Source: a virus
Strand: one strand, 5' to 3'
IMG/VR virus record: IMGVR_UViG_3300031760_000017
Length of the DNA stretch: 64,000 nt
Part shown: piece by piece, positions 33,779-36,667 of the stretch
Layout: the number at the start of each line of letters is the position of its first letter
How positions within the stretch are numbered: position 1 is the stretch's first letter
Notes under the pieces: generated by a model
What the model was told of the DNA's origin: nothing
What the model saw: the letters and a program-made list of their open reading frames with translations, nothing else
Databases searched by the model: none
Made by a program: the position numbers and the translations under genes

Positions 33779-35017
33779 ATGCTTAATAAAAACAATGAAA
33801 GAGAACTTGCTTATGTGGTTATTGTTGATGCAGTAACTCCAATTAAAGGTTATGATAGAGTAGAGCTTGCTCATGTGGGCGGATGGACCGTTGTAGTTGG
33901 AAAAGGCGAGTTCCATGCGGGCGACCCCGCAATTTATTTTGAAATTGATTCTCAGCTTCCTGAGGTAGAGCCATTTACTAATATGGAATTTCTTGCTAAG
34001 AAACATTATAAAATTAAAACACAGAAAATGTGTAAATCTATTTCTCAGGGGCTTCTAATGTCTGCCGCAAATTTTGGATGGAAAAAATCTGCTGAAAATG
34101 CAGGTGACTTTCCATACATCAAGGATAATGAAGGTATTTGTCATTTTACAAATGATGAGTCTCGTTTCCTTACAAAGCAGCTTAATGTAACATACGCCGT
34201 TCCAGAAGATAATGCCCGCAAAGCAAATTCTGTTGATAAATATAAGAAAATGGCACAGCGCAATGGTAAGCTTTTCTCTCATCAGCCGTTTAAATGGCTT
34301 ATGAAAAAAGAGTGGGGAAGAAAACTTCTTTTCACATTCTTTGGTAGCAAAAAGGATAAGACAGGCTGGCCCGCATGGGTAAAAAAGACAGATGAGGAAA
34401 GAATCGAAAATCTTCCATATCTGTTTGAAGATAAGTCTCCTTGGATTGCTACTGAGAAAATTGATGGGACTAGCACAACTTTCACCCTGAAACGCGGAAA
34501 AGGACTCTTTAAGAAAGATGAATTTTATATTTGTTCCCGTAACGTATGTTTCGATAGACCTAATAAAAATTGTTTCTATGAAACAAATGTTTATATTGAA
34601 ATGGCTGAAAAATATAATATTTATAATAAGATGAAGCATCTTCTTGAAACAAAATATAAAGATTGTGAATGGATTACAATTCAGGGTGAGACTTATGGAA
34701 CTGGAATTCAGAAACGTGATTACCATATGACAGAACATAATTTTATGGCTTTTAACCTGATTTCCTCTAAAAATGGAAGAGAAAATTCACTTATTATGAA
34801 AGATATTCTTGAGAAGGAAAATGGTATTCCTTGTGTTCCTATTGTAGCTGACTCTTATACACTTCCGGGCACTCTTGAAGAGCTTCGTGAGTTTGTAGAT
34901 AGTGATACTTCCGTTATTGACGGAGAAATTAGAGAAGGAATTGTATTCCGTTCCACTGACGGTTCTCGTTCTTTTAAATGTGTTTCTCCAACATATCTTA
35001 TGAAATATCATCAGTAA
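33779..35017 (+). CDS. ATP-dependent RNA ligase
   Basis: Nucleotidyl-transferase motif I ATEKIDGTS, motif IV-like REGIVFRS and motif V-like SFKCVSPTYL. The N-terminal VIVDAVTPIKGYDRVELAHVGGWTVVVGKGEF resembles the DRB0094-type RNA ligase N-domain. Confidence 0.7.
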   Translation: MLNKNNERELAYVVIVDAVTPIKGYDRVELAHVGGWTVVVGKGEFHAGDPAIYFEIDSQLPEVEPFTNMEFLAKKHYKIKTQKMCKSISQGLLMSAANFGWKKSAENAGDFPYIKDNEGICHFTNDESRFLTKQLNVTYAVPEDNARKANSVDKYKKMAQRNGKLFSHQPFKWLMKKEWGRKLLFTFFGSKKDKTGWPAWVKKTDEERIENLPYLFEDKSPWIATEKIDGTSTTFTLKRGKGLFKKDEFYICSRNVCFDRPNKNCFYETNVYIEMAEKYNIYNKMKHLLETKYKDCEWITIQGETYGTGIQKRDYHMTEHNFMAFNLISSKNGRENSLIMKDILEKENGIPCVPIVADSYTLPGTLEELREFVDSDTSVIDGEIREGIVFRSTDGSRSFKCVSPTYLMKYHQ

Positions 35018-35023
35018 ATTTTA

Positions 35024-35075
35024 AAGGTGAGATAAAAAATCTCACCTTGTTTTTTTTATTATTTTTTGTTATAAT
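35024..35075 (+). promoter_or_regulatory. fused terminator-promoter cassette
   Basis: Hairpin AAGGTGAGAT-aaaaa-ATCTCACCTT. -35 TTGTTT at 35047-35052 and TATAAT at 35070-35075. Confidence 0.65.
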
Positions 35076-35110
35076 ATATATAATGAAAAATAAAGAAAGG
35101 ATATAAAAAT

Positions 35111-35365
35111 ATGACGCTTAAAGAATGGCTTAAAAAAATTGATTTAGTAATAGACGTAAAAATTTGGGGAAAAGATGATGAGATACCTCTCTTTGAAGGC
35201 GCAGCTTTTGATATTCCTTGGACTATTATTGATTTTTCAATAGGCAGAATGGAGAATAGCACAGAAGAACCTATTTATATTTGCACTTATAAAAATAAAA
35301 ATAATGTGGTACTTTCAATAATTGTTATTAATGTGATAGAAAAAGAGGAGGATTTTCCATTTTGA
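35111..35365 (+). CDS. hypothetical protein (84 aa)
   Basis: Intact ORF with an AAGGA RBS. Confidence 0.45.
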   Translation: MTLKEWLKKIDLVIDVKIWGKDDEIPLFEGAAFDIPWTIIDFSIGRMENSTEEPIYICTYKNKNNVVLSIIVINVIEKEEDFPF

Positions 35366-35646
35366 CAACACAAATTTCAGAAATGTATTGTACTTGCTGT
35401 GGTAAAAAAGGAATATCTATTCCTAGAAAAAATAGTAAATTTAGAAAATCTGGACATTTAAAAAAATTATATTGTATTTATTGCGGAGCTGAAAAAAATC
35501 ATGTTGAAATTCGTCCTATCTATGATGACTATACTTACAAAGATTTCGAACTTGAAATGAAATATAATAATTTTGATTCAGAAGGAAATAGAAAAGAATC
35601 TTATCGAATTTTTAGAGGAAATTTAAAGAAAGCAGGTGTTATATAA
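35362..35646 (+). CDS. zinc-ribbon protein (CxxC...CxxC)
   Basis: CTCCGKKG...CIYCGAE. The start is uncertain (TTG 35362 or ATG 35383). Confidence 0.45.
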   Translation: MTTQISEMYCTCCGKKGISIPRKNSKFRKSGHLKKLYCIYCGAEKNHVEIRPIYDDYTYKDFELEMKYNNFDSEGNRKESYRIFRGNLKKAGVI

Positions 35647-36146
35647 TGGGTGATTTATATATAATGTGTGGCGTTCCTGGCTCTGGCAAATCAACCTTTC
35701 TTAAAAATAGAGTAAAATCAAATAAAGGTGTTATTATTTCTCGTGATAAAATTAGATTTTCTCTTGTCAAACCAGATGAACCTTATTTTTCAAAAGAAAG
35801 AGAAGTTACAAAAACTCTTTGGGATAAAATTAATAAAGAGTTAGCATCTGGAAATACTGTTTTTGTAGACCAAACTTCTCTTACTAGAAAATCTAGAAAA
35901 TGGCTTCTTGACCATATTATTACAAACAATTGTAACCATATTAATTTAATCTGGATAGATGAAAATCTTAAAACATGTTTAGAAAGAAATGAACAAAGAA
36001 AAGGAACTCGTGGTTATGTTCCTAAAGAATCTATTGTTAATATGTATAATAACTTTGAAGAGCCTTCATTAAATGAAGGATTCTATCGAATCTTTAAATA
36101 CAATAGCACAAATGATGAGATAACTTATAAAGGAGTGATTTTATAA
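35646..36146 (+). CDS. P-loop polynucleotide kinase-like protein
   Basis: Walker A GVPGSGKST. Its size and context (between an RNA ligase and a phosphoesterase) match a Pnk-type kinase. Confidence 0.6.
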   Translation: MGDLYIMCGVPGSGKSTFLKNRVKSNKGVIISRDKIRFSLVKPDEPYFSKEREVTKTLWDKINKELASGNTVFVDQTSLTRKSRKWLLDHIITNNCNHINLIWIDENLKTCLERNEQRKGTRGYVPKESIVNMYNNFEEPSLNEGFYRIFKYNSTNDEITYKGVIL

Positions 36147-36667
36147 TGTCAAATATTTGGCTTATTTCAGATACTCATTTTAATCATAATAAAAATTTTA
36201 TTTGGAAGGCTCGCGGCTTTAATTCAGTAGAAGAAATGAATGAAACCATTATTAAAAATTGGAACGATGTGATTCAACCAGATGATGTTGTATATCATCT
36301 TGGTGATGTTATTATGGGCGAGCTTGATGCGGGCATTCCCCTTATAAAAAGACTTAATGGCAAAATTAAACTAGCAATTGGAAATCATGACACAACAATG
36401 CGCCTTGCCGCATTTAAAGAACTTTTTGATGAAATTAATTTTGGATATAGACTTAAAAAAGGTAAAAAAACCTTTCTACTTACTCATTATCCAACTCTAG
36501 TTGATAACTATGATGACCCAGTAAAAGTATATTCTATACATGGTCATACTCATTCATCAAATGCTTTTTGTGACCATCCTTTTATGTATAATGTCAACTG
36601 TGATGCACATAATTGTAAACCAATTCTTTTTGAAGAGGTAATTGAAGACATATACAGTCATAAATAA
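36146..36667 (+). CDS. calcineurin-like metallophosphoesterase
   Basis: Motifs ISDTHFNH, LGDV, GNHD and HGHTH. The start overlaps the kinase stop (ATAATG). Confidence 0.7.
   Translation: MSNIWLISDTHFNHNKNFIWKARGFNSVEEMNETIIKNWNDVIQPDDVVYHLGDVIMGELDAGIPLIKRLNGKIKLAIGNHDTTMRLAAFKELFDEINFGYRLKKGKKTFLLTHYPTLVDNYDDPVKVYSIHGHTHSSNAFCDHPFMYNVNCDAHNCKPILFEEVIEDIYSHK

Follow-up and report, generated by a model that had tools for sequence, protein, structure and literature searches.

The 64-kb virus sequence IMGVR_UViG_3300031760_000017 from IMG/VR (hereafter the window, meaning this stretch at its full length) encodes, within 2,889 bp (33779-36667), a predicted RNA ligase, a predicted polynucleotide 5'-kinase (Pnk) and a predicted metallophosphoesterase (MPE). 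We favour, with moderate confidence, the reading that these proteins belong to a phage RNA break-repair module, combining end-healing and end-sealing, directed against ribonucleases, of the host or of competitors, whose cleavage yields 2',3'-cyclic-phosphate (or 3'-phosphate) and 5'-OH ends. A sequence-only reading of this DNA had pointed to three open reading frames (ORFs) within 3 kb, with the motifs EKIDGTS, GVPGSGKST and DxH/GD/GNHD/GHxH; all of these are present, and the enzyme classes it had named, namely an RNA ligase, a P-loop kinase and a phosphoesterase, are those returned by Pfam, PHROG and NCBIfam. The three genes are listed here (aa, amino acids).

33779-35017 (+): Rnl5-family ATP-dependent RNA ligase, 412 aa, stop TAA; PF21189 and PF09414, TIGR02306, phrog_968, PDB 5cot
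35646-36146 (+): stand-alone polynucleotide 5'-hydroxyl kinase, 166 aa; AAA_33, phrog_505, family profile
36146-36667 (+): binuclear MPE of the aq_1665/AQ1575 subfamily (cd07390), 173 aa; translationally coupled to the kinase (TAATG)

The ligase has an N-terminal OB domain (approximately residues 8-100), followed by a basic linker and a nucleotidyltransferase domain with motifs I (K227-IDG, in EKIDGTS), III (QGE304), IV (E386-GIVFR) and V (SFK400). Since the protein stops 12 residues past K400 of motif V, it has no C-terminal domain. In Pfam, residues 221-402 matched RNA_ligase (PF09414, 1.2e-19) and residues 11-94 matched the PHA02142 OB domain (PF21189, 7.9e-19), and phrog_968 ('RNA ligase') matched over the full length (1.5e-59). 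The best solved structure was the Rnl5 ligase NgrRnl of Naegleria gruberi (5cot, 3.3e-24); the alignment includes motifs I, III, IV and V, pairs residues 8-100 with NgrRnl 5-103 and sets K227-IDG against K170-LDG. The Rnl5 architecture is defined in PMC4408790, where Lys170 is reported to be essential in NgrRnl. Against NCBIfam, RNA_lig_DRB0094 (TIGR02306) matched at 3.2e-31 and Rnl2 at 1.7e-8. The TIGR02306 match is split into two stretches, owing to the longer linker of the ligase, which is basic, exceeds that of NgrRnl by ~60 residues and is typical of the phage subfamily phrog_968. As the score lies under the TIGR02306 equivalog threshold (108.5 versus 151.15 bits), the ligase is assigned to this divergent phage subfamily. 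We rejected Rnl1, Rnl2, DNA ligase and capping enzyme as identities, because Rnl5 profiles and structure match best, not the Rnl1 profile TIGR02308; DNA-ligase matches reach E ~0.2 at best. Judged by these comparisons, the protein first read simply as an RNA ligase is a Rnl5-type (DraRnl/NgrRnl) enzyme in a divergent phage form. Nick sealing by Rnl5 enzymes is Mn2+-dependent. Members of the family seal 3'-OH/5'-PO4 nicks in duplexes in which the strand with the 3'-OH is RNA; their physiological roles have been called 'uncharted', and the sole physiological phenotype is that loss of DraRnl slows genome reassembly after irradiation in Deinococcus (PMC5397189). A megablast search of 33000-37500 against 50,697 GenBank phages gave no match, and the phage has no close sequenced relative there.

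The kinase is a single domain, with no second domain found by Pfam. It carries the P-loop G9-x4-G14-K15-S16 (GVPGSGKST), the catalytic residues D34 and R37, D75 and the lid residue R118, and G9, G14, K15, D34, R37, D75 and R118 are invariant across 18 diverse homologues. Matches were obtained to AAA_33 in Pfam (2.1e-20) and to phrog_505, 'polynucleotide kinase' (6.9e-25). A family profile of the same 18 homologues matched the kinase of Clostridium thermocellum Pnkp (CthPnkp) at 1e-25, PSTK at 4e-22, Capnocytophaga Pnkp1 at 4e-20, T4 Pnk at 2e-17 and mammalian PNKP at 5e-15, whereas nucleotide and sugar kinases were far weaker (adenylate kinase-like 5e-5, gluconate kinase 5e-3), so that a nucleotide or nucleoside kinase is not indicated. 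D34 and R37 align with 'SSDFCR' of CthPnk, D34 occupying the position of the Asp that is mutated in the CthPnk D38N structures. Profile and catalytic residues place the kinase in the polynucleotide 5'-kinase clade (T4 Pnk/CthPnk). The identities PSTK and KTI12 were rejected, since their C-terminal tRNA-binding parts are absent and the profile is closer to CthPnk.

The MPE encoded directly after the kinase has the motifs D9xH11, G53-D54, G79-N80-H81-D82, H114 and G133-H134-x-H136, all invariant or near-invariant across homologues. It matched Metallophos_2 in Pfam (7.9e-9) and the phosphoesterase family phrog_547 (1.5e-46), and among solved structures only that of Aquifex aq_1665 is convincingly related (3.3e-10 for the sequence alone, 7.6e-23 for the profile); aq_1665 is also the nearest protein in predicted fold, the structure prediction having been run on database homologues. 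It does not carry the lambda-phosphatase signature (GDxxDRG, GNHE), and we classify it, on homology, in the aq_1665/AQ1575 subfamily and not with the lambda-phosphatase type of bacterial Pnkp. Homology alone does not reveal the substrate of this MPE; a literature search found no characterisation of aq_1665, and the structure 1xm7 was deposited as that of a protein of unknown function. We propose that it is an end-healing enzyme for 2',3'-cyclic-phosphate or 3'-phosphate ends.

Two more proteins, absent from the sequence-only reading, appear to belong with these three.

35362-35646 (+): basic C4 zinc-ribbon protein, 94 aa, pI 9.3; TTG start 9 nt past GAGGAGG
27464-28210 (+): second MPE, lambda-phosphatase/PPP type, 248 aa; D8xH10, G32-D-x-x-D-R-G38, G60-N-H-E63

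The zinc-ribbon protein has a CxxC...CxxC arrangement in which the four cysteines are invariant, with a basic loop between them. Only 143 homologues were found in a collection of 5.8 billion proteins, all of ~95 aa and none annotated. Its predicted fold resembles that of ribosomal protein bL33, and it is probably an RNA-binding partner of the kinase, which we take as a lead and not as proof. The second MPE, encoded 5.6 kb upstream of the ligase gene, matched lambda phosphatase (1.8e-6) and phrog_246 (4.7e-32), a profile whose N-terminal part is matched by Pnk kinases. It also matched phrog_8238 at positions 175-313; this phage family of 737 aa, named 'RNA ligase', has kinase, phosphatase and ligase in the order of bacterial Pnkp. 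These matches identify it as a real homologue of the Pnkp phosphatase module and make it a candidate second 3'-end-healing enzyme; as stated in PMC2190708, 2',3'-cyclic phosphodiesterase activity is present in both lambda phosphatase and CthPnkp.

Gene order in relatives was followed in two independent IMG/VR scans, one seeded with the ligase, which gave 58 related loci, and one seeded with the kinase-coupled MPE, which gave 77 new loci. A kinase gene lies downstream of the ligase gene in 51 of the 58 ligase-seeded loci, and an aq_1665-type MPE is present in 40; of the seven loci that lack a kinase, two are contigs whose sequence stops right past the ligase. When the ligases were clustered at 60% identity, a kinase was found within 1.9 kb in six of seven clusters, and at 70% in 11 of 15. 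Seen from the MPE, 59 of the 77 loci have the kinase upstream at a distance of less than 300 nt, 51 have a zinc ribbon and 34 have a Rnl5 ligase within 8 kb. A frequent order in these loci is lambda-type MPE, zinc ribbon, Pnk and aq_1665 MPE, often with a flotillin-like gene just 3', and a lambda-type MPE directly 5' of the zinc-ribbon and kinase genes was seen in L031, L068 and many MPE-seeded loci. The contigs that carry the relatives have been binned to Ruminococcus, Lachnospira, Clostridia and Bacillales.

Among the best 150 representatives from 1.84 billion proteins, we found single polypeptides of 341-347 aa in which Pnk and MPE are fused (P0276, P0344 and P0382). Their N-terminal Pnk is 42-46% identical to the kinase and their C-terminal MPE 43-54% identical to the MPE (E 4e-64 to 1e-51). 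P0344 was found on six contigs of 50-200 kb, of which two retrieved ones are ~114 kb, and a zinc-ribbon homologue lies upstream in L074, L075 and L076. In ligase relatives that are further removed the phosphoesterase is swapped: a Pnk-HD fusion (293-368 aa, with a C-terminal HD phosphohydrolase) follows the Rnl5 ligase in L046-L055, L058, L035 and L070. The Bacillus phage KoopaTroopa pairs a Rnl1-type ligase with a Pnk-HD fusion, and in related Bacillus phages the kinase match adjoins an annotated RNA or tRNA ligase. Thus a ligase, a 5'-kinase and some phosphoesterase recur though the families vary, as a shared pathway predicts. RlaP (PF10127, 'RNA repair pathway DNA polymerase beta family') and a Thg1-like protein (PF04446, 1.1e-29) are encoded in the same cluster in L047, its siblings and L068, and in some relatives the repair island is fuller, where Rnl5, RlaP, Pnk-HD, a Thg1-like 3'-5' polymerase and also a lambda-type MPE are encoded one after another.

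L047, 7448-10899: fuller repair island
L068, 1-1956: fuller repair island

The overall layout, with ligase, Pnk, phosphoesterase, RlaP, Thg1 and TROVE, agrees with the phage RNA-repair pattern given in a review, which also notes phosphatases of the calcineurin-like and HD types in this role for 'a small number' of phages (PMC7824862). A hidden Markov model built on the HD part of the relatives' Pnk-HD fusions found no homologue encoded in the window. A general association of tRNA genes with the ligase was rejected because too few loci have it: tRNA genes stand beside the ligase only in L027, L034, L070, L072 and a Microbacterium phage. In that phage (L059, locus 4980-6062) a distant Rnl5 homologue, of 27% identity, is encoded within an array of more than 25 tRNA genes.

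The genes at 35362-36667 are tightly packed. The overlap of the kinase stop with the phosphoesterase start, already recognized in the sequence-only reading, is a single base in TAATG (stop TAA, start ATG; 36144-36148), and the zinc-ribbon stop likewise overlaps the kinase ATG in a TAATG at 35646. Two ORFs, 35111-35365 and 35362-35646, separate the ligase from the kinase, and a terminator-like hairpin sits in the same interval. The remaining features of the locus are as follows, the hairpins coming from a consensus scan only.

33280-33310: terminator-like hairpin
33550-33762 (+): conserved 70-aa ORF directly 5' of the ligase; homologue 5' of the ligase in 22 of 58 related loci
35024-35048 (+): terminator-like hairpin directly 3' of the ligase stop; 10-bp stem, then a T run
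35111-35365 (+): small acidic ORF, 84 aa, pI 4.4, opening the kinase operon; only in close relatives, 8 of 58 loci
36707-36740 (+): terminator-like hairpin; 15-bp stem, then a T run; closes the kinase-MPE operon, before the holin gene

The scan found seven such predicted terminators where 1.6 were expected. Because a terminator-like hairpin, also new relative to the sequence-only reading, sits between the ligase and the kinase operon, the trio is probably organised as two adjacent transcription units and not as one operon. The upstream unit likely consists of two small ORFs and the ligase; the zinc ribbon, the kinase and the MPE, preceded by the 84-aa ORF, likely make up the downstream unit.

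Conserved synteny, translational coupling and the kinase-MPE fusions support a joint role in end-healing. Beside these observations, and beside the family assignments and catalytic residues, we infer which activities the enzymes have, how the steps follow one another, how the two MPEs share the work and what the substrate is; the substrate is most likely a structured RNA such as tRNA. One or both MPEs (the aq_1665-type enzyme and the lambda-type enzyme of 27464-28210) would turn the cyclic or 3'-phosphate end into a 3'-OH. Pnk would then move an NTP phosphate onto the 5'-OH, with D34 as the general base and R37 holding the RNA phosphate. The Rnl5 ligase would self-adenylylate at K227, activate the 5'-phosphate and seal the 3'-OH/5'-PO4 break provided that a duplex or stem keeps the two ends together. 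The basic, bL33-like zinc-ribbon protein, coupled to Pnk, would probably deliver the RNA substrate to the enzymes.

Several points weigh against this repair pathway. Rnl5 enzymes prefer templated duplex nicks, and anticodon-loop breaks are not such nicks; the only known Rnl5 phenotype, that of DraRnl, concerns DNA repair (PMC5397189). The hairpin at 35024-35048 splits the ligase from the kinase operon, L027, L032, L034 and L057 have a ligase without a kinase nearby, and L075 and L076 have a zinc ribbon and Pnk-MPE with no ligase within 6 kb. In phage records the aq_1665-type MPE is found 1,542 times, the ligase 332 times and the kinase 117 times, so most members of this MPE subfamily work without these partners. 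Finally, no Thg1 or RlaP homologue is encoded in the window. Repair of tRNA, which the sequence-only reading had put forward, draws on the Thg1-like and RlaP genes of relatives. The tRNA array that it had also invoked comes down to four tRNA genes in the window, and its Ro60-like gene was not confirmed: that protein matches DUF2828/DUF7788 (phrog_850), with no sequence match to any solved structure, that of Ro60 included.

Some of these points could also be read as signs of a different function. It is conceivable, and in our judgement unlikely, that the module mends nicks in DNA or in RNA-DNA hybrids during phage replication. Pnk and a phosphoesterase would then clean 5'-OH/3'-phosphate nicks left in phage DNA by host nucleases or lying at embedded ribonucleotides, and Rnl5 would seal nicks that have a ribonucleotide 3' end. 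Kinases of the Pnk clade, including the T4, Cth and mammalian enzymes, also act on DNA, which is in agreement with such a role, as is the presence of RNase H (39491-39994), gyrase and the NAD-dependent DNA ligase LigA a few kb downstream; RNase H is close to the cassette in most relatives. The founding Rnl5 enzyme itself, DraRnl, needs RNA on the 3'-OH side only, and its loss delays genome reassembly (PMC5397189). However, LigA (46685-48691) is a complete DNA ligase of the phage's own, and Rnl5 is therefore not needed for replication or for joining Okazaki fragments. The Thg1-like protein, RlaP and the CCA-enzyme-like HD domain fused to Pnk, which relatives add in the same cluster, also speak against DNA as the substrate, and the bL33-like zinc ribbon points toward RNA binding.

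In another explanation, to which we again give a low probability, the zinc ribbon, Pnk and MPE would form a unit of their own that alters the ends of RNAs or nucleotides and involves no ligation, with Rnl5 just a frequent neighbour. Possible roles of this kind are the processing of phage tRNA or non-coding RNA, the destruction of a 2',3'-cyclic-phosphate signal or the marking of RNAs for decay. The three genes are indeed the tightest unit, by their overlaps, fusions and the 59/77 adjacency; only 34 of the 77 loci have the ligase within 8 kb, in the window a terminator-like hairpin sets it apart, L075 and L076 have the unit with no ligase within 6 kb, and phages carry the aq_1665 MPE family much more widely than the ligase. 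Against this, a 5'-kinase and a 3'-phosphoesterase make exactly the ends that an ATP-dependent ligase needs, the kinase is kept downstream at 41-44% ligase identity and across the swap of phosphoesterase type, and where the ligase is not adjacent it may lie elsewhere in the genome. That the clustering is incidental, with three unrelated accessory genes in a variable region, we regard as very improbable and strongly disfavour. Mosaicism is seen between the structural and lysis genes, in that the slot of a SpoT-like HD gene is occupied by a RlaP-like nucleotidyltransferase in relatives with a 90%-identical ligase, yet the order is conserved over deep divergence, genes overlap by one base, fusions arose independently, and the same functional set recurs with different families.

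For the RNA-repair module that we prefer, the principle of RNA healing and sealing is established by T4 Pnkp/Rnl1, bacterial Pnkp/Hen1 and surveys of jumbo phages. The sequence-only reading had compared the trio with the T4 Pnkp/Rnl and bacterial Pnkp systems; this stands as a functional analogy only, since the Rnl5 ligase and the aq_1665 MPE place the set outside both families. With T4, which uses Pnkp and Rnl1 against the anticodon nuclease PrrC, it shares a phage 5'-kinase, 3'-end healing, ATP-dependent sealing and a presumed counter-defence role, and T4 Pnk is homologous to the kinase (2e-17, profile). T4, however, has a DxDxT (HAD) phosphatase fused to the kinase, and its Rnl1 seals anticodon loops, whereas metallophosphoesterases, a split kinase and a Rnl5 ligase of the duplex-nick-sealing type are found here. 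Bacterial Pnkp of C. thermocellum, with its partner Hen1, performs the same three chemistries; its kinase is the closest profile match, with the same catalytic Asp and Arg, and the second MPE (27464-28210) is homologous to its lambda-phosphatase module. In that protein the three modules, including a ligase module of its own, form one polypeptide, while here a Rnl5 ligase takes this place and the ORFs are separate, with the ligase upstream of the kinase and not C-terminal. Among the ORFs scanned no Hen1 homologue was noticed. Phage look-alikes of Pnkp are phrog_8238 (737 aa) and phrog_246 (kinase and lambda-type phosphatase).

Compared with DraRnl and NgrRnl, the phage ligase has the same order of OB and nucleotidyltransferase domains, the same motifs I, III, IV and V and no C-terminal appendage. 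It differs by its ~60 extra basic linker residues and by standing beside Pnk and phosphoesterases; DraRnl is instead paired with a DEDDh-like exonuclease gene (PMC5397189). The ligase and Pnk-HD cassettes (L046-L055, KoopaTroopa), with which we group the HD-Pnk end-healing enzymes of Shuman, share an RNA ligase followed by a homologous Pnk with a phosphoesterase attached or adjacent. In those cassettes HD is fused to the C-terminus of Pnk, while here a separate MPE gene and an added zinc-ribbon gene are present. Modular RNA-repair systems with SPFH/Band-7 or TROVE scaffolds were reportedly described by Burroughs and Aravind in 2016. Systems of this kind (PMC7824862) share the ligase, the kinase, phosphoesterases, RlaP/Thg1 (in relatives) and flotillin/Band-7 genes beside the module. 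The part of the survey literature used here gives Rnl1 and Rnl2 as the main phage ligases, whereas the present one is Rnl5, and a bL33-like zinc ribbon, an aq_1665 MPE and a protein with the shoulder domain of the major vault protein (MVP) are not described in that part.

What is new is the unusual make-up, which combines Rnl5, a split Pnk, an aq_1665 MPE, a lambda-type MPE and a bL33-like zinc ribbon. The neighbourhood of Rnl5, Pnk and phosphoesterase, widely conserved in a large clade of gut and rumen phages, offers a concrete and testable RNA-repair setting for Rnl5. The fusion to Pnk gives a first functional hypothesis for the aq_1665 MPE subfamily, which is found in more than 1,500 sequenced phages, and the bL33-like zinc ribbon is a candidate new accessory factor. 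A compact set of split kinase, phosphoesterase and nick-sealing ligase could also find use as reagents for RNA end repair.

The window comes from a large gut or rumen phage; its source contig is 84 kb, and the contigs of relatives are 115-176 kb. Apart from the cassette and LigA, it encodes tail proteins, a holin, a 761-aa endolysin, RNase H (39491-39994), gyrase and a DnaB helicase. TAG is a sense codon in this phage, as in code 15. The endolysin ORF (37098-39383) has 14 in-frame TAG codons and no other stops, two long tail ORFs emerge when TAA and TGA alone are read as stops (18612-27263, minus strand, 2,883 aa, 71 TAG; 13604-18295, minus strand, 1,563 aa, 26 TAG), and no gene in the window ends in TAG. 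TAG is absent from the repair cassette, the genes for replication, the lambda-type MPE and the DUF2828 gene, all of which could therefore be translated before suppression is established. The four tRNA genes of the window (Gln-UUG, Gly-UCC, Arg-UCU and Cys-GCA, at 396-1395) include no suppressor tRNA. At gathering score Rfam found nothing in the window beyond these four tRNAs, and a permissive Rfam scan of 27000-37200 gave sub-threshold matches only, on terminator hairpins.

In many related loci, genes of the SPFH family stand next to either the ligase or the kinase-MPE unit, frequently directly 3' of the MPE, and their products could be a scaffold for the repair enzymes. In the window, 28277-29851 (+) encodes a flotillin, a FloT-like (6.6e-74) SPFH/Band-7 protein. 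Just 5' of the ligase unit, 30774-33263 (+) encodes an 829-aa vault-like protein with one in-frame TAG at 32739, a match to the shoulder of the major vault protein (3.9e-23), a Vault_3 repeat, Band-7-like regions and a coiled-coil tail; of the 58 ligase-seeded loci nine keep this gene, as do further loci from the MPE-seeded scan. A larger ribonucleoprotein repair station, in which the bL33-like zinc ribbon and these two SPFH-type proteins (28277-29851, 30774-33263) would scaffold broken tRNAs for restoration by Pnk, the two MPEs and Rnl5, is an extension that we hold to be quite improbable. The tRNAs so held would possibly be the phage's own, including an amber suppressor needed by the TAG-recoded late genes. 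If true, this would be the first natural RNA-repair role for Rnl5, and tRNA repair would be tied to the maintenance of an alternative code.

PADLOC defence models gave no match for the cassette or neighbouring proteins. Between the flotillin and vault-like genes, 29946-30371 (+) encodes a 141-aa HD protein with a SpoT/Mesh1-like 'ALAHDLYEDT' motif, a match to phrog_990 and a weak Pfam HD match; it may be a small enzyme resembling alarmone hydrolases, and its SpoT-like HD domain is of a different type from the Pnk-fused one. The gap between this HD gene and the vault-like gene contains two tandem paralogous ORFs for hydrophobic peptides of ~47 aa (30388-30530 and 30555-30700, plus strand), which share NL(I/N)(T/N)WSW...LWPLW. 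A non-coding RNA at 30372-30773 was rejected, as this gap holds these two small membrane-peptide ORFs. Further away, 1464-3014 (+) encodes the DUF2828 and DUF7788 protein, which matches phrog_850, 'RNA-binding protein' (5e-124), with the tRNA genes just upstream. Among the structural genes, 8913-10181 (-) encodes a CotH-family kinase homologue (5.9e-28).

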